Assembly (NCBI GenBank): GCA_963808615.1
Contig: CAWEGV010000002.1
Coordinates: 55,386-119,385, forward strand
Direction of reading: 5' to 3'
Source of the DNA: an uncultured Actinomycetota bacterium
GTDB taxonomy: Bacteria; Actinomycetota; Actinomycetes; Streptosporangiales; Streptosporangiaceae
DNA: 64,000 bases
In this document: piece by piece, positions 6,874 to 57,621 of the stretch
Layout of the letters: each line of letters opens with the position of its first letter
Position numbering within the stretch: the stretch's first letter is position 1
Made by a program: the position numbers and the translations under genes
The notes under the pieces: model-generated
Seen by the model: the letters and a program-made list of their open reading frames with translations, nothing else
What the model was told of the DNA's origin: nothing
Databases searched by the model: none

Positions 6874-7673
6874 AGCACGGCGACGACGCGGCCGAGGATG
6901 CTCGCCTCGTCACCGAGGAGCGGCGTGTAGGCGGGGTTGTGCGGGATCAGCCAGGCGTGCCCGTCGCTCCGCTTGAACGTCTTCACCGTCGCCTCGCCGT
7001 CGAGCATCGCGGCCACGATGTCCCCGTTCTGCGCATCTTCCTGCTGCCGGACCACGACCCAGTCCCCGTCCGCGATGGCGGCGTTGATCATCGAGTCGCC
7101 GACCACCTTGAGCAGGAACAGCGTGCCCTCGCCCACCAGCTGCCTGGGCAGCGGGAAGACGTCTTCCACGTATTGCTCGGCCAGGATCGGCCCGCCCGCG
7201 GCGATCCGCCCGATCCACGGGACGTAGGCGGCTTCTTGTGACGCGATGTCGATGCCGGGAATGTCGGCCGGCGCTTCGGCCTCGCGCTCGCGGCCCGGCT
7301 CCGGCCGCACCGCCGGGTGACCGGGCAGGCGCACTTCGACCGTCCTGGGCCGGCCCACGTCGCGGTGCAGGTAGCCCTTCTTCTGCAGGGTGCTGAGCTG
7401 ATACGAGACACTCGAGGTGCTGGTCAGCCCGACCGCTTCCCCGATCTCCCGCATCGACGGCGGGTAGCCGCGCTTCTGAACCGAGTCGCGGATGACCTGA
7501 AGCACCTTGCGCTGCCGCCAGGTCAGCACGTGGTCGGGATCGGGCCTGTCCGGAGTATCCAGGGGAATCACGGGCACGCTGCCTTTTGGTTTGCGCCCTG
7601 GCCGTCCCTTCGGTCTGGGGGCGTCGGTGCCGGAAGTGCCCGTTGTGGTGCCTCCCATGGCGGTTTCCTCCAT
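6861..7673 (-). CDS. lexA: LexA repressor (S24 peptidase)
   Basis: Winged-helix region [35 protein letters not shown]. Cleavage and catalytic region includes [16 protein letters not shown] and ATVKTF. An alternative ATG at 7658 has a better GGAGGA spacing. Confidence 0.95.
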
Positions 7674-7739
7674 CTGATGACCTTCCGTGTCCGGAATCTT
7701 GCGTACTGATGTAGAGAGTAGCGTTCCTCGCCCGATATC

Positions 7740-7755
7740 CCAAACATCTGTTCGA
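7740..7755. promoter_or_regulatory. SOS-box-like site upstream of lexA
   Basis: CCAAACATCTGTTCGA compared with the actinobacterial consensus TCGAAC-N4-GTTCGA. The right half is perfect and the left half has 2 mismatches. Confidence 0.5.
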
Positions 7756-7809
7756 CGTGTCGCGAAAATGTCAGGCCCGCGCGATACAACGATGTAGTAG
7801 GCGTTCCGC

Positions 7810-7873
7810 TCGAACAGGAATACGATCGAACGAAGGTGCGATCGAACATAGTATAGCTCGAACGAAAGTTTGA
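7810..7873. promoter_or_regulatory. Array of four abutting 16-bp SOS-box-like units
   Basis: TCGAAC occurs at 7810, 7826, 7842 and 7858, an exact 16-bp period. The right halves are ATACGA, GTGCGA, TATAGC and GTTTGA, with 2, 1, 4 and 1 mismatches to GTTCGA. The array ends at the start of the ChiZ-like ORF. Confidence 0.5.
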
Positions 7874-27753: not shown

Positions 27754-29895
27754 GTGCCCGCTGTGAGCACGGACACTTCGGTGCCCAGGCCTCGGGACGC
27801 ATCCGACGCCGCTCTGGTGGACATGCTCATGCTGGAGGCGCCGGTAGGCCTCGCGCTCTTCGGGCCCGACCTGCGCTTCCGCTGGGTGAATGCTGCCCTG
27901 GCCCGGCTCGAGGGAACGGACCCGGCCCGATACGCCGGCCGGCTGCCGTCCGAGGTGTGGCCGGAGGAGCTCGCGACCCGCGCCGAGGCCGCGCTGCGCA
28001 AGGTCCTGGCCGACGGCGCGCCGGTGCTTGCCAGGGGGGAATGGGGGGGCGGGCAGCCCCCCCATGATCGGGGGGATTCCCAAGGGGGGTCCGGGGGGAT
28101 GGGTCCCCCCGCTAGAAATCAGTCGTCCCCCCGGGGATACACCGCATCCTGGTTCCCCGTGCACGACGCGGCCGGGGAGATCGGCGGCGCCGGGCTCATG
28201 CTGCTCGAACTCGGCGGGCACCCGGCCGAGGAGGAGATCAGGCGCAGCGAGGAGCGTTACCGCTCGCTGGTCCAGGGCGCCGCCCAGGTGGTCTGGGTGG
28301 CGGCCCCCGACGGCGCCATGAAGGAAGACTCGCCGGAGTGGCGGTGGATCACCGGGCAGTCGACCGAGGACTACTTGGGCCACGGCTGGCTGGCCGCCGT
28401 GCACCCCGATGACCGGGAACGGGTCGAGCGCGACTGGCGCGAGTGCGTCCGGACCGGCAAGGTGTTCGACGACCGGTACCGGATCCGGACCAAGAACGGC
28501 TCGTACCGGCACTACGACGTGCGGGCGGTCCCGATCGAGCGGGACGGCAAGATCGTCGAATGGGTCGGGGCCACCAGCGACGTCACCAGCCAGCGTGAGG
28601 CCGAGGAGATGCGCGGGCGGCTGACCGAGCAGCTGTCCGCGGCCGCGCTGCGCACCGCGCGGCTGCAGCAGGCCACCTCGATGCTGGCCGAGGCGCTCAT
28701 CGTGGAGCAGGTGGTCGAGGTCATCACCGAGGTGGGCCGGACCGCGATCGGCGCGCTGCGGTCGGCGGTCGCTCTGCTCGAACCGGACGGTGCGCGGCTG
28801 CGGGTGGTCAACGAGGACGGATTGCCGACCTCACCGGACTCGGCGGCCGGCCCGCTGACCCTGCAGTCTCCCAGCGTGATGACCAGGGCCATCGCGACTC
28901 GGCAGCCGGTGCTCATCGAGGACCCGGAGGACCTGCGCAGGCAGTTCGCGGGTGAGCTCGACATCTACCCGGCCAACGTGGTGGCGACGTCTGATGAGCG
29001 CTCCTGGGTCGGCCTGCCGCTGATCACGGCGGGCGCGCCGCTGGGCGCGCTGCGGTTCTCGTTCGGCCGGGCCAGGAAGATCACCGAGGAGGAGCGGGTC
29101 TTCCTCGAGGCGCTGGCCGGCCAGTGCGCGCTGGCGGTCGAGCGAGCGGGGCTGTATGAACGGGAGCACACCACCGCCGAGACGCTGCAGCGCAGCCTGC
29201 TTCCCGACCGGCTGCCCAGCGTCCCCGGCCTGGTCCTGACGGCCAGGTACCGCCCGGTCGGGCGGAACATGGAGATTGGCGGCGACTGGTACGACGGGTT
29301 CCGGCTGGCCGACCAGCGGCTGGCGCTCGCGGTCGGCGACGTCATGGGCAAGGGGCTGACCGCCGCGGCCGGCATGGGCCGGGTCCGCAACGCGCTGCGC
29401 GCGCTGGCCCTGACCGACCCGCGCCCGGCCGCCGTCCTGGGCGGCCTGGACCGGCTGTTCAGCGCCACCGAGGAGGAAGAGCAGGTCACCACCGTCGCCT
29501 ACCTGGTGATCGACCCCGCCACCGGCGAGGGCATGCTCGGCAACGCCGGCCACCTGCCCGCCCTGGTGCTCGAGGCGGGCACCGCGCCGCGGTTCGACCA
29601 GGTGGAGGCGGGCACCCCGCTCGGCTGGGCCAGCCCGCGCAAGCAGCACGTGTTCAGCCTGCAGCCGGGCAGCACCGCGGTGTTCTACTCCGACGGGCTG
29701 GTCGAGACCAGGAACCGTGGCCTGGACGCCGGCCTGGATGACCTGGCCGCGGTGGCCGCCCGTGCCGACGCGGATCTGCTCGGCCAGCCTGAACGCCTGC
29801 TCGAATACCTCGTAGACCGCATGCTCGCAGGTCACGAGCAAGACGATGACGTCACCGTACTGGTCATTCACCGGCCTGCCGGGGGTGCGCAGTGA
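27754..29895 (+). CDS. PAS/PAS/GAF sensor fused to a SpoIIE/PP2C-family protein phosphatase
   Basis: PAS region: WITGQSTEDYLGHGWLAAVHPDDRERV..YRIRTKNGSYRHYDVRAVPIERDGKIVEWVG. PP2C region: LQRSLLPDRLP...GGDWYDGF...AVGDVMGKG...YSDGLVE. The start is uncertain (GTG 27754 or 27763). Confidence 0.9.
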   Translation: MPAVSTDTSVPRPRDASDAALVDMLMLEAPVGLALFGPDLRFRWVNAALARLEGTDPARYAGRLPSEVWPEELATRAEAALRKVLADGAPVLARGEWGGGQPPHDRGDSQGGSGGMGPPARNQSSPRGYTASWFPVHDAAGEIGGAGLMLLELGGHPAEEEIRRSEERYRSLVQGAAQVVWVAAPDGAMKEDSPEWRWITGQSTEDYLGHGWLAAVHPDDRERVERDWRECVRTGKVFDDRYRIRTKNGSYRHYDVRAVPIERDGKIVEWVGATSDVTSQREAEEMRGRLTEQLSAAALRTARLQQATSMLAEALIVEQVVEVITEVGRTAIGALRSAVALLEPDGARLRVVNEDGLPTSPDSAAGPLTLQSPSVMTRAIATRQPVLIEDPEDLRRQFAGELDIYPANVVATSDERSWVGLPLITAGAPLGALRFSFGRARKITEEERVFLEALAGQCALAVERAGLYEREHTTAETLQRSLLPDRLPSVPGLVLTARYRPVGRNMEIGGDWYDGFRLADQRLALAVGDVMGKGLTAAAGMGRVRNALRALALTDPRPAAVLGGLDRLFSATEEEEQVTTVAYLVIDPATGEGMLGNAGHLPALVLEAGTAPRFDQVEAGTPLGWASPRKQHVFSLQPGSTAVFYSDGLVETRNRGLDAGLDDLAAVAARADADLLGQPERLLEYLVDRMLAGHEQDDDVTVLVIHRPAGGAQ
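28034..28136. repeat. G/C-homopolymer hairpin element, copy A (inside the phosphatase CDS)
   Basis: Runs: G6, G7, C7, G6, G6, G6, C6, C6. Hairpin at 28041-28065: ATGGGGGGGC-gggca-GCCCCCCCAT. Second hairpin at 28093-28110. The core is shared with 54637..54712. Confidence 0.65.
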
Positions 29896-37478: not shown

Positions 37479-37500
37479 CAATTCGGGTTCCTGCTTTCTG

Positions 37501-37554
37501 CCCCACCCCACCCCCCCCCCCCCCCCCCCCCCCCCTCCCCCCCCCCCCCCCCCC
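37501..37554. repeat. 54-nt near-pure poly-C tract (poly-G on the gene strand)
   Basis: CCCCACCCCA + C25 + T + C18. It lies in the 123-nt gap between the SDR stop (37602) and the topo IV A start (37478). Confidence 0.9.
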
Positions 37555-37601
37555 GACGACATTCTGCCCTGCCCGGGCCGCCACGCAAGCCAACGCCGCG
37601 C

Positions 37602-54155: not shown

Positions 54156-54206
54156 CACGTCGTTGTGACAACCACGTGGTCTGGTGCACGTCGTTGTGAC
54201 AACGAC
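54156..54206. promoter_or_regulatory. Two 17-nt direct repeats, each a TGTGACA-centred palindrome, 31 bp apart, upstream of dnaE2
   Basis: CACGTCGTTGTGACAAC at 54156 and 54187. The second extends to the perfect 19-nt palindrome CGTCGTTGT-G-ACAACGACG. Confidence 0.55.
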
Positions 54207-54228
54207 GTCGTTGGATCCGGGGCCAGAG

Positions 54229-57200
54229 GTGGGCTGGGATAACGCGCCGGTCCCGTGGGCCGAGCTCCGGCGCCGCATGTCCTGGCGTGCCGAAGGTCAG
54301 CCGCCCCAGGCCGGGTCCGCTGACCCCGAGGCGCCTCACCATGCCGGGCCCGCCGGTCCCGAGACGGCGACGCCCGTCCCGAGCGAGCCGGTCAGGCGGC
54401 CGGAAGCCGGCCGTGTCCCCTGGGCCGAACTGCACTGCCACTCCGCGTTCAGTTTCCTCGACGGGGCGGCCGCTCCCGGTGAGCTCGTCGCCGAAGCGGC
54501 CCGGCTCGGGCTCGAGACGCTCGCCATCACCGATCACGACGGCATGTACGGGGTTCCGCAGTTCGCCCAGGCCGCCGCCCGGCTCGCCGAGCACGGCGCC
54601 CGGCTCCGCACGGTGTTCGGCGCCGAGCTCAGCCTGCCCCCCGGGTCAGGGGGGTACGGGGGGGCGGGCAGCCCCCCCGTGCGCGGGGGGTCCAGGGGGG
54701 TCGTCCCCCCGGACCAGTCCAGCCACCTGCTGATCCTGGCCCGCGACCCGGAGGGGTACCGCAGGCTGTGCTCTGTGATCAGCGCGGCCCAGCTGGCCGG
54801 CGGGGAAAAGGGACGGCCGGTCTACGACACCGGAGCGCTGGCTAGCGCGCACGACGGCCACTGGGTGGTGCTGACCGGCTGCCGCAAGGGGCAGGTTCCC
54901 GTCGCGCTCGCCGCCGGCGGCCCGGACCCGAAGACCGCGGCCTGGCGGGAGCTGGCCGAGCTGACCGCGATGTTCGGGCACGAGAACGTGATGGTCGAGC
55001 TGAACTGCCGTCACGATCCCGGCGATGACGAACGGAACGACGCGCTGGCCCGGCTCGCGGCGGCCGCGGACGTCGACGTGATCGCGACCGGCAACGTGCA
55101 CTACGCGGTCCCCGGCCAGGCCCGGCTCGGCCAGGCGCTGGCCGCGATCCGGGCCCGGCGGTCCCTGGCGGACCAGGACGGCTGGCTGGACCCGGCGGGC
55201 ACGGCTTACCTGCGCTCAGGCGCGGAGATGGCCGCGCTGCTGCGGCGCTACCCGGGCGTGCTTGAGCGGACCGTCGCGCTGGGACGCGAGTGCGCGTTCG
55301 ATTTCCGCGTGATCGCGCCGAGCCTTCCCGACTTCGGCGTCCCGGCCGGCCACACGGAGGCGTCCTGGCTGCGTGAACTGGTCGCGCGGAAGGCCCCGGC
55401 CCGGTACGGGGCGCCCGGCCGCGAGCGGGTGCCCGGCGCGCATGCGCAGATCGCCAGGGAACTCGACGTCATCGAGCGGCTGAAGTTCCCCGGCTACTTC
55501 CTGATCGTGCACAACATCGTCGAGTTCTGCGAGCACGAAAACATCCTGTGCCAGGGCCGGGGATCGGCGGCCAACTCGGCGGTGTGCTACGCGCTCGGCA
55601 TCACCAACGTCAACCCGGTCTCGCACCACCTGCTGTTCGAGCGGTTCCTTTCCGAGGGCCGGGACGGCCCGCCCGACATCGACCTGGACATCGAGCACCG
55701 GCGCCGGGAGGAGGTCATCCAGTACGTCTACCGCACCTACGGCCGGGAGCGGGCCGCACAGGTCGCCAACGTGATCACCTACCGGCCGCGGCTGGCGCTG
55801 CGGGACGCGGGCCGCGCGCTCGGCTACACCCCGGCCCAGTCGGACGCCTGGGTCCGGCAGATCGGCCCGGGCGCGGCTGCTGACGGCGAGTCGCTGCCGG
55901 CCGATGACCGCGACCCGGACGCGGTTCCCCCGGCCGCGGCCGACCTGGCCGCTCAGATGCAGCGGCTGCCGCGCCACCTCGGCACCCATTCCGGCGGCAT
56001 GGTGATCTGCGACCGGCCGGTGGGGGAGGTCTGCCCGGTGGAATGGGCACGGATGCCCGGCCGCAGCGTGCTGCAGTGGGACAAAGACGACTGCGCCTAC
56101 GCGGGCCTAGTCAAGTTCGACCTGCTCGGCCTGGGCATGCTGGCCGCCCTGCACGACTGCCTTGACCTGGTGAACAAGCACTACGGAGAGCACTGGTCGA
56201 TGTCTTCCATCCCGCAGGAGGATCCGGCCGTCTACCAGATGCTGGCCGAGGCGGACACGGTGGGAGTGTTCCAGGTGGAATCCCGCGCGCAGATGGCGAC
56301 CCTGCCCCGGCTGCGACCTAAGCAGTTCTACGACCTGGTCATCGAGGTGGCGCTGATCAGGCCGGGACCGATCCAGGGCGGCTCGGTCCACCCGTACCTG
56401 CGCCGGCATGACGGCCATGAGCCCGCCACGATGCCACACGAGTCCATGCGCCCTGCGCTCGGCAAGACACTGGGCGTGCCGCTGTTCCAGGAGCAGATGA
56501 TGCAGCTGGCCATCGACTGCGCGGGATTTGATCCCGCCGAGGCTGACCGGCTGCGCCAGGCGATGAGCGCCAAACGGGCTCCCGAGCGGATCGCCGAACT
56601 CCGCCAGCGGCTGCTGGACGGGATGGCCGAGCGCGGCATCAGCGACGCGGTCGCGGAAGACATCTACGTCAAGATCCTCGCCTTCTCCAATTACGGGTTC
56701 CCCGAATCGCACGCGATCAGCTTCGCGTACCTGGTCTACGCCAGCGCGTGGCTGAAGCAGTACTACCCGGCCGCGTTCACCGCCGCCTTGCTGCGCAACC
56801 AGCCGATGGGGTTCTACGCCCCGCACACCCTGATCAACGACGCGCGGCGGCACGGGGTCGTGGTCCTAGGCGTAGACGTGAACGCCAGCGAGGCCCTGGC
56901 CAGCCTCGAAGGCTTCGCGGGTGCCTGCCCGGCCGGCGTCAAGAGACCGGCCATCCGGCCCGGCCTGTCCGGGGTGCGTAACCTGGGCCTCCAGGCGGCC
57001 GAGCGGGTGGCCGCCGGGCGGCCCTACCGGGACCTGGAGGATTTCGCGGCCCGGACCGCGCTGCCGGCCGCCGCGCTCGAGGCGCTTGCCCTGGCCGGGG
57101 CGTTCGGGTGCTTCGGGCTGAGCAGGCGCGCCGCGCTGTGGGCGGCGGGTGCCGCCGCCACGGTGCGCGAGGGGCAGCTGGCCGGCACTACCACCGGGCT

Positions 57201-57621
57201 CGATCCGGAGAGCCCGGGGGGCAAGGGGTCCGCGCCGCCGCTGCCCGCCATGACGCCGGTCGAGGAGACGTTCGCCGACCTGTGGGCCACCGGGACCTAC
57301 GGCACTCACCCGGTGGCGCACATCCGGGCCTGGCTCGCCGAGCGGCAGGTGCTGACCGCGGCGGCGGTCAGGTCAGCCGCCGCGGATTCCCACGTGACCG
57401 TGGCCGGCCTGGTCACTCACCGGCAGCAGCCCCCGACCGCACGCGGGGTAGTGTTCATCAGCCTGGAGGACGAGACCGGGATGGTGAACGTCATCTGCCC
57501 GCCCCAGGTCTGGGCCCGCCACCGCCGGATGGCCATGGTCGCGCCTGCGCTGCTCATCCAGGGCCGGGTCGAGCGCACCGGCGGACCCCGAGCGCTGACC
57601 AGGCGGCCCCGAGCGCTCTGA
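54229..57621 (+). CDS. dnaE2: Error-prone DNA polymerase DnaE2 (ImuC); 3' end disturbed
   Basis: VGWDNAPVPWAELRRRMS N-terminus (GTG 54229). PHP domain WAELHCHSAFSFLDGA. GRGSAANSAVCYALGITNVNP, FDLLGLGML, RPGPIQGG. The stop at 57621 lies inside a 58-nt duplication. The conserved C-terminus continues in another frame to 57715. Confidence 0.9.
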   Translation: MGWDNAPVPWAELRRRMSWRAEGQPPQAGSADPEAPHHAGPAGPETATPVPSEPVRRPEAGRVPWAELHCHSAFSFLDGAAAPGELVAEAARLGLETLAITDHDGMYGVPQFAQAAARLAEHGARLRTVFGAELSLPPGSGGYGGAGSPPVRGGSRGVVPPDQSSHLLILARDPEGYRRLCSVISAAQLAGGEKGRPVYDTGALASAHDGHWVVLTGCRKGQVPVALAAGGPDPKTAAWRELAELTAMFGHENVMVELNCRHDPGDDERNDALARLAAAADVDVIATGNVHYAVPGQARLGQALAAIRARRSLADQDGWLDPAGTAYLRSGAEMAALLRRYPGVLERTVALGRECAFDFRVIAPSLPDFGVPAGHTEASWLRELVARKAPARYGAPGRERVPGAHAQIARELDVIERLKFPGYFLIVHNIVEFCEHENILCQGRGSAANSAVCYALGITNVNPVSHHLLFERFLSEGRDGPPDIDLDIEHRRREEVIQYVYRTYGRERAAQVANVITYRPRLALRDAGRALGYTPAQSDAWVRQIGPGAAADGESLPADDRDPDAVPPAAADLAAQMQRLPRHLGTHSGGMVICDRPVGEVCPVEWARMPGRSVLQWDKDDCAYAGLVKFDLLGLGMLAALHDCLDLVNKHYGEHWSMSSIPQEDPAVYQMLAEADTVGVFQVESRAQMATLPRLRPKQFYDLVIEVALIRPGPIQGGSVHPYLRRHDGHEPATMPHESMRPALGKTLGVPLFQEQMMQLAIDCAGFDPAEADRLRQAMSAKRAPERIAELRQRLLDGMAERGISDAVAEDIYVKILAFSNYGFPESHAISFAYLVYASAWLKQYYPAAFTAALLRNQPMGFYAPHTLINDARRHGVVVLGVDVNASEALASLEGFAGACPAGVKRPAIRPGLSGVRNLGLQAAERVAAGRPYRDLEDFAARTALPAAALEALALAGAFGCFGLSRRAALWAAGAAATVREGQLAGTTTGLDPESPGGKGSAPPLPAMTPVEETFADLWATGTYGTHPVAHIRAWLAERQVLTAAAVRSAAADSHVTVAGLVTHRQQPPTARGVVFISLEDETGMVNVICPPQVWARHRRMAMVAPALLIQGRVERTGGPRALTRRPRAL
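54637..54712. repeat. G/C-homopolymer hairpin element, copy B (inside the dnaE2 CDS)
   Basis: Runs: C6, G6, G7, C7, G6, G6, C6. Hairpin at 54656-54680: ACGGGGGGGC-gggca-GCCCCCCCGT. Second hairpin at 54695-54710. Confidence 0.65.

Follow-up and report, generated by a model that had tools for sequence, protein, structure and literature searches.

Repetitive extragenic palindrome (REP) systems with RAYT genes have been described mainly in Proteobacteria. The Rickettsia palindromic elements (RPEs) are described, as summarised in PMC10969869, as short dispersed palindromic repeats that lie in frame in unrelated housekeeping genes (Ogata et al. 2000). RPEs are about 100-150 nt long, encode one conserved peptide, have no known transposase partner and are found in AT-rich, obligate intracellular Rickettsia. 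[quoted passage not shown] Here we analyse a repeat with features of all of these in a 64 kb stretch of DNA (70.9% G+C; hereafter the window) from an uncultured Streptosporangiaceae bacterium (assembly GCA_963808615.1, contig CAWEGV010000002.1, positions 55,386 to 119,385). The window contains two copies of an element built from G and C homopolymer runs, copy A within the gene for a sensor phosphatase and copy B within the gene for the error-prone polymerase DnaE2. The two copies are members of a lineage-restricted, high-copy, modular palindromic repeat family of Trebonia/Treboniaceae-like Streptosporangiales. It is probably non-autonomous, selfish mobile DNA akin to REPs and MITEs, with a behaviour resembling that of the RPEs.

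Copy A carries the run series G6, G7, C7, G6, G6, G6, C6, C6 at positions 28034-28132 and copy B a comparable series at 54637-54710, so that 15 of the 34 homopolymer runs of six or more nucleotides in the window fall within the two copies. Both contain the same 21-mer core, GGGGGGGCGGGCAGCCCCCCC, which is exact at 28043 and at 54658. When up to three mismatches are allowed, the chance expectation is 0.1 matches, and the observed count was reached in none of 100 shuffles. In the open reading frame (ORF) 27754-29895 copy A is translated as ...ARGEWGGGQPPHDRGDSQGGSGGMGPPARNQSSPRGY..., with the core codons TGG GGG GGC GGG CAG CCC CCC (W-GGG-Q-PP), whereas the core codons of copy B are GGG GGG GCG GGC AGC CCC CCC (GG-A-G-S-PP). 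Since the core is read in a different frame in each copy, the likeness between them is at the nucleotide level and not at the protein level. Copy A, of a long subfamily, occupies 28031-28142 on the plus strand (nhmmer 28030-28118, E 8e-13), and has the anatomy CCA-G6-AAT-[G7 CGGGCAG C7]-ATGATC-G6-ATTCCCAA-G6-TCC-G6-ATGGGT-C6-GCTAGAAATCAGTCGT-C6-GGGGATACAC. Its additional internal module (cccaaG6tccG6atgggtC6) is also present in loci L042, L065 and L068. Copy B, a canonical unit, occupies 54637-54722 on the plus strand (nhmmer 54646-54720, E 1e-13) and has the anatomy C6-GGGTCA-G6-TAC-[G7 CGGGCAG C7]-GTGCGC-G6-TCCA-G6-TCGT-C6-GGACCAGTCCAG. Each copy has two hairpins on the plus strand. In copy A, hairpin H1 (ATGGGGGGGC-gggca-GCCCCCCCAT, 28041-28065) has a 10-bp stem and the loop GGGCA, and the second hairpin, G6-atgggt-C6, lies at 28093-28110; in copy B, H1 (ACGGGGGGGC-gggca-GCCCCCCCGT) lies at 54656-54680 and H2, G6-TCGT-C6, at 54695-54710. 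The H1 stems differ by one compensated pair, T:A in copy A and C:G in copy B (AT...AT versus AC...GT). The predicted folding energy of copy B is better than that of dinucleotide shuffles (z -3.79), but that of copy A is not (z -1.06). A first-pass annotation of the window, made from the sequence alone, had already reported the run block in the phosphatase gene, the two hairpins of copy A and the recurrence of the core inside dnaE2, and we recovered the runs, their frame and translation, the hairpins and the exact match at the positions reported. Comparison with the family extends the elements a little, to the coordinates given above, and the annotation's description of a two-copy family holds within the window only.

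An exact 21-mer scan of the GTDB species-representative genomes found the core in at least 115 stretches in about 44 species-level metagenome-assembled genomes (MAGs) of Streptosporangiaceae/Trebonia, Trebonia being placed in Treboniaceae, Streptosporangiales. All but two of the matches listed are in MAGs from peat and soil projects that are labelled Streptosporangiaceae, Trebonia sp. or uncultured Actinomycetes/Actinomycetota, and the two exceptions among them, an alphaproteobacterium and an unclassified bin, each have the bare hairpin only. One MAG, CAVWXG01, has at least 18 core loci. In about 1 Mb of fetched sequence a profile hidden Markov model gave 154 matches, of which about 17 are independent extra copies in about 900 kb; this density, roughly one per 50 kb, gives on the order of 100 copies per genome. 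The same profile found only the known copies A and B in the window. The canonical unit, derived from an alignment of 97 copies, is CCC-R-G6-TAC-[G7 CGGGCAG C7]-GTGAGC-G7-TCT-G7-ATCGT-C6-GRGGCAACACAG, about 85-110 nt in length, with variation in an optional A after GTGAGC, in (A)TCGT, in C6/7 and in the GRGG-C-A(A/G)CAC(W)G that follows. At the right end the A-A/G-C-A-C/G-W-G tail is 66-79% conserved and the sequence beyond it is random. The left end is ragged and composed of modules. Either half of the element, the left hairpin unit or the right unit, can be duplicated in tandem with a period of 33 nt, a multiple of three, and when in frame these modules give repeated 11-residue peptide units. 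Such arrays are found in L055 (7527-7735), L045 (2009-2153), L100 (about 7521-7820) and L036 (4632-4700), and in L036 the tail ggccaacac is itself duplicated with a 9-nt period. Rfam has no match at gathering thresholds in the whole window and, in e-value mode, only chance-level sub-threshold matches for both copies, and the open-access literature searched contains no description of the repeat family. It is apparently undescribed so far, as had been supposed for actinobacteria when copy A was first noticed.

The structure of the unit is dominated by a long hairpin, G7-C-loop-G-C7 with two to three co-varying flanking pairs, and by a second hairpin formed from the G6-7/C6-7 runs. Of the 97 aligned copies, 62 have C-G and 31 have U-A at pair 14-36, while at pair 13-37 there are 78 with A-U, eight with U-A and six with C-G; 95.9% of cells are paired overall. 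The triplet ahead of G7 (TAC, TAT, TTT, TCT, AAC or CAC) varies jointly with its partner, and the covariation score of the stem flanks was reached in none of 500 shuffles, with all slid controls lower. Pair 12-38 is mostly T-G, which pairs on the strand shown and not on its complement, a hint that one particular strand adopts a single-stranded form. The spacing of the G runs had also been proposed to fit G-quadruplexes or i-motifs. For G-quadruplexes this stands at the level of the motif: four tracts of G3 or more with loops of 1-7 nt are found by regular expression and by G4Hunter at 28023-28106 and 54640-54704, G7-TCT-G7 and G6-N3-G7 segments satisfy G-quadruplex motifs, and the G4Hunter scores of copies A and B place them with the highest-scoring windows of the whole stretch.

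To place the copies relative to genes we used a codon-usage score calibrated on independently called genes, for which the true frame was best in 140 of 140 test windows; at the coding threshold the sensitivity is 96% and 1.7% of wrong frames pass. An element was counted as in frame when it lies in an uninterrupted ORF with coding flanks in the same frame. Among all exact-core copies, 41 of the 103 that could be scored are in frame (19 sense, 22 antisense), and among copies from short-read assemblies only, 20 of 38; intergenic copies also occur. Another 22 copies are flanked on both sides by coding sequence of one strand, but with the frame shifted from one side to the other. Of these, 19 are from long-read assemblies and three from short-read assemblies, which suggests that the shifts reflect errors in homopolymer length at the G6-8/C6-8 runs of long-read assemblies. 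The shifted copies from long-read assemblies sit in loci L005-L117 (long-read MFD MAGs), and dnaE2 calls are often split or truncated in long-read assemblies, for example into 456 aa and 620 aa in L120 (10001-13230). In this clade the elements can thus mislead long-read assemblies and gene callers into frameshifts, and genes that are split at or near them are suspect. The in-frame copies encode Gly/Pro/Arg/Ser-rich peptides, and the translations in use include GGAGSPP and xGGGQPP in sense and GGAARPP and GGLPAPP in antisense copies. Five of the six frames are free of stops in 75-92% of copies, compared with a rough estimate of about 60% for random sequence of 71% G+C and of the length of the element; the sixth frame (36%) is mostly closed because of the TGA within GTGAGC.

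The genes that contain the element are diverse. In Pfam scans of 20 host ORFs we found unrelated housekeeping proteins, with the element often inside a domain. They include proteins of respiration (NuoG and a NuoM/N-type subunit), of DNA metabolism (the NAD-dependent DNA ligase LigA, Lhr and a DinG-like helicase), of nucleotide and amino-acid biosynthesis (the GMP synthase GuaA, PurH, ArgJ, a PabB-like enzyme and a class-III aminotransferase) and of lipid and other metabolism (Lnt, phytoene synthase, acyl-CoA synthetase, CoA transferase and an ATP-grasp enzyme), together with an S9 peptidase and a SARP regulator. An exhaustive HMMER search with the 31-aa peptide, a low-power way to count hosts, gave one match, and a word-indexed peptide search gave matches from at least seven unrelated Pfam families. 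The latter search returned only proteins of about the length of the query (up to 139 aa for a 79-aa query), so that missing long matches are uninformative; with a 310-aa query it returned, under the same length limit, no full-length DnaE2.

In the window the fold-compatible position of the insert, in a loop, is established for both host genes, and for these two only. Copy A lies in a PAS-PAS-GAF-SpoIIE (PP2C-type) phosphatase (27754-29895, plus strand), where it encodes approximately residues 94-129, between beta-strands 91-97 and 127-137. The AlphaFold model of this protein is poor overall (mean predicted local distance difference test score, pLDDT, of 55) and usable for the first PAS domain; residues 97-126 have a pLDDT below 50 and the neighbourhood of the two strands one of about 80. 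In this model copy A is a predicted loop between two PAS beta-strands, of low confidence. Most of the 120 phosphatase orthologues have a short loop, ...ESGYPQGHTASWF, at this point. Copy A is common to the window protein, P0001 and P0003, while a 93%-identical orthologue, L119, is without the element and has an unrelated 15-residue loop instead. Other orthologues have different G/C-run inserts in the same PAS loop, which the profile assigns to the same family, on the minus strand in L001 (10242-10315) and L002 (10251-10319) and on the plus strand in L003 (2734-2808) and the window. Copy B lies in dnaE2 (54184-57621, plus strand), in a PHP-domain loop between the GAE and HLL motifs, which we take to be the Glu- and His-bearing motifs of the PHP domain; in a syntenic contig the gene is located downstream of genes resembling imuA' and imuB. 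Most relatives of DnaE2 read GAELSL-GLPSAQTGVPDPEGR-HLLVLARD here, the insert (GGYGGAGSPPVRGGSRGVAPPD) is kept in a clade with 76-83% protein identity, and its site aligns with the PHP-domain loop region of Mycobacterium tuberculosis DnaE1 (5LEW). Long, unrelated, low-complexity inserts rich in Ala, Pro and Arg are found in the PAS loop of P0024, P0034, P0054 and P0116, and in the PHP loop of P0144, P0156, P0178, P0184 and P0187. With unrelated inserts in other lineages, the two loops are indel hotspots in general, whether or not the element family is present.

Such hotspots might be taken to mean that copies A and B are Gly/Pro loops expanded by local slippage, with a convergent similarity to each other, or that they are homopolymer artefacts of sequencing or assembly, given that long-read assemblies mis-call the runs and supply nearly all of the frame-shifted copies. 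Both explanations are highly improbable and we regard them as effectively refuted. Against them stand the exact 21-mer with its ordered flanking runs in at least 115 places, the reading of the same DNA in different frames and on both strands, its recovery by different studies in Illumina as well as long-read assemblies made independently (with SPAdes, MEGAHIT and long-read assemblers), and the existence of copies between genes. An assembly artefact, ordinary conservation of a protein segment and a lack of further copies were the grounds on which the first-pass annotation expected that it might fail, and all three are excluded. Its other proposals have fared well. The placement of copy A in a loop of the PAS domain agrees with the orthologue alignment and with the AlphaFold model, and orthologues are without the element or have other versions of it. 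Its picture of a nucleotide-level repeat that lives in ORFs without breaking them is borne out by the several frames, both orientations and about 20 unrelated housekeeping proteins.

This combination of dispersal, several frames, both orientations and housekeeping hosts supports the comparison with the RPEs that had been drawn at the outset. Both are short, dispersed, multi-copy repeats with hairpin potential, of which a large share lies in frame in unrelated genes with the ORF intact and with the extra peptide at fold-compatible positions, and neither has a known transposase partner. The G/C-run family differs from the RPEs in its free-living, approximately 71% GC hosts, in its composition of G/C homopolymer runs, to which the RPE sequences are unrelated, in its shorter unit and in being read in several frames and both orientations instead of encoding one peptide; it also has tandem module duplications and orientation flips at orthologous sites. 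Given these hosts, Streptosporangiales MAGs, and this composition, the family is therefore an analogue of the RPEs and not a member. With the REPs, bacterial interspersed mosaic elements (BIMEs) and REPINs, which are mobilised by RAYT (Y1 HuH) transposases, it shares an imperfect palindrome, rich in G+C, in which compensatory changes preserve the stem, a mosaic or modular arrangement and many copies per genome, and both plausibly act as single-stranded hairpins, as the one-strand T-G wobble at pair 12-38 would indicate. In contrast, REPs are extragenic by definition while at least 40% of the G/C-run copies are intragenic, REPs have a conserved 5' GTAG whereas the nucleotides at the foot of the stem vary in the G/C-run family, and no RAYT gene was seen in the roughly 1 Mb that flanks the G/C-run copies. 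The family is like the MITEs in being small and non-autonomous, but about half of its copies are in frame, and neither a target-site duplication nor, in about 1 Mb around the copies, a parent insertion sequence was found for it. The IS200/IS605-derived palindrome-associated transposable elements (PATEs) resemble it in their subterminal hairpins at both ends, the lack of target-site duplications and of terminal inverted repeats, and a defined 3' tail beyond the last hairpin; they differ in that no conserved left-end target tetranucleotide is demonstrable at the modular, ragged left end of the G/C-run unit and that neither TnpA nor TnpB was found around its copies. By analogy, any link to the PATEs would be one of resemblance only.

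If the family is selfish mobile DNA, its history may have been as follows. New copies would arise through an activity that works in trans and recognises the hairpin, or through copying from one element to another on the basis of homology or microhomology; within this reading the hairpin is most likely the feature needed for propagation. Evidence for this reading is the dispersal at non-homologous loci, with about half of the copies in frame (41/103 overall, 20/38 in short-read assemblies), in either orientation and in several frames, together with the co-varying stems, the loop positions in the two window genes and the turnover at orthologous sites, where the element can be missing, differ in its stem variant or be flipped. 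The run-based sequence would be ‘coding-neutral’, since five of six frames contain few stops, and on either strand and in almost any frame the element would encode a flexible, loop-compatible Gly/Pro/Arg/Ser-rich peptide; copies may survive in coding DNA because of these properties. Selection would then purge only insertions that fall outside permissive loops or out of frame. Once resident, a copy may later be exchanged, flipped or shortened, either through recombination with others or through renewed insertion, as a result of which the runs would stay family-like while the spacers change.

Several observations weigh against this reading. Terminal inverted repeats exist only in rudimentary form (CCCC-A-GGGGGG-TAC against GTCGT-CCCCCC-GGGG, the 8-nt tail being further outside). 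In 16 comparisons of filled and empty orthologous sites we found no clean target-site duplication and no conserved target. At filled sites a host segment is replaced, and most ‘empty’ alleles hold either a short, unrelated segment or a remnant. Such junctions do not demonstrate cut-and-paste or copy-in transposition. A partner transposase was sought by clustering 495 coding ORFs from all fetched loci, among which only housekeeping paralogues and orthologues recur, and no transposase, RAYT gene or parent insertion sequence was seen in about 1 Mb of flanks. The 21-mer core has no match in viral contigs. All genomes that carry copies are MAGs. Finally, in 22 orthologous pairs the columns of the G/C runs are 97.5% identical and those of the spacers 72%, against about 77% for third codon positions. 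Such retention of the runs should be unlike the behaviour of purely neutral junk, and needs gene conversion, function or an effect of ascertainment.

One of the ‘empty’ sites deserves a separate description. In L070, at about 1729-1773 upstream of a pimA-like ATG, the site is empty relative to L008 and L082 but contains CCCCCCAGCCCCCCCTGGGGGGGAGCC, which looks like the remnant of a deleted element rather than a site that was never occupied.

The lack of target-site duplications and the replacement, not simple interruption, of host sequence are also what would be expected if the elements spread and were homogenised without a transposase, the G/C-run hairpins exchanging sequence through template switching, repair synthesis primed by microhomology or gene conversion over short tracts. 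They would then be by-products of recombination or repair that seed themselves at breaks in G/C-rich DNA. We regard this kind of copying as a serious rival, if an unlikely one. The ragged, modular left ends and the 33-nt tandem duplications of both modules in L055, L045 and L100 point in the same direction, as does the lack of a transposase among the ORFs of the fetched loci. Copying of this kind would also explain orientation flips, switches of subfamily and the maintenance of the runs. Opposite orientations are found in three groups of orthologous sites, the PAS loop, L021/L106 versus L040, and L024 versus L067, and opposite orientations at one loop imply that the element either entered the same few codons more than once or was inverted or converted where it stood. 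The paired stem variants TAC/GTG, TCT/AGG, TTT/AAG and TAT/ATG recur in the family, and orthologous copies often differ by a switch from one to another, even where the flanks are 90-96% identical, as in L015 versus L080. In spacer columns a non-orthologous copy is closer than any orthologue in 22 of 35 cases, but this test is biased, since a maximum over about 95 copies is set against a maximum over one to three orthologues. Against transposase-free copying, the right end is fairly sharp and full-length units occur at unrelated loci, both of which are more typical of ends that are defined by an enzyme.

The conservation of the runs bears on a further alternative, that the elements are domesticated functional modules, acting either as a G-quadruplex, i-motif or hairpin in DNA or RNA at which replication, transcription or translation pauses, or as a selected linker rich in GG and PP. 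In its favour, the runs are kept at 97% identity between orthologous copies while the spacers are at about the neutral level, the stems covary, and both window copies satisfy G-quadruplex motifs and are among the highest G4Hunter windows of the 64 kb. The DnaE2 pair of the window and L120, of which the latter was found via its protein and not via the core, differs at two of 68 nt in the body of the element, with third codon positions outside it 77% identical. The intactness of the runs is favoured, however, by ascertainment on an intact core and by the ‘canonical’ filter. Relative to the host gene, copies are found in either orientation and in several frames, so that no single mRNA structure or peptide is conserved; the element is dispensable in close orthologues, which lack it, and the positions are scattered over unrelated genes and intergenic DNA. 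We therefore find it quite unlikely that the family as a whole consists of such modules. A function at the level of RNA only is rejected, given copies in both orientations within genes. The idea that whole elements are better conserved than their flanks is likewise rejected: between orthologous copies the non-core part of the element is 72-90% identical and the mostly coding flanks are 80-97% identical, and only the run positions stand out. For comparison, spacer identity between random copies is 55%, and run identity across the family is about 94%.

A more speculative idea, which we regard as doubtful, is that the elements are a self-renewing ‘loop cassette’ whose runs are actively maintained and which repeatedly remodels the same permissive loops of essential proteins. 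Maintenance could be by concerted evolution, through conversion among some 100 copies and inversion in place, or by selection on a G-quadruplex, an i-motif or the long hairpin. If true, this would be a new mechanism of loop diversification in high-GC bacteria, possibly one that also causes pausing through structured G-rich mRNA and diprolyl motifs.

The family is an independent case of in-frame palindromic repeats that is at least as extreme as the RPEs, in a free-living, high-GC, largely uncultured lineage of soil and peat. Repeats of this type are accordingly not a quirk of reductive intracellular genomes. The many species-level genomes available make the family a system for studying how proteins tolerate insertions, and its construction from homopolymers, together with the way in which the runs are maintained, opens hairpin and G-quadruplex biology and gene conversion to questions that can be tested.

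The window also contains a 66-nt insertion, CAATTCGGGTTCCTGCTTTCTGCCCCACCCCA-C25-T-C18, at 37490-37555, with its poly-C tract at 37511-37554. Elsewhere in about 1 Mb of related loci there are no homopolymers of ten or more nucleotides. The insertion may be a genuine poly-G leader, or else an artefact of assembly (two-colour poly-G). Its position is exactly between an upstream SDR gene and the start codon of a GyrA/ParC-like (DNA_topoisoIV) gene on the minus strand, and the syntenic loci L119 and L001, which are without it, read ...GCCAT|GACGACATTCTGCC... across the junction.

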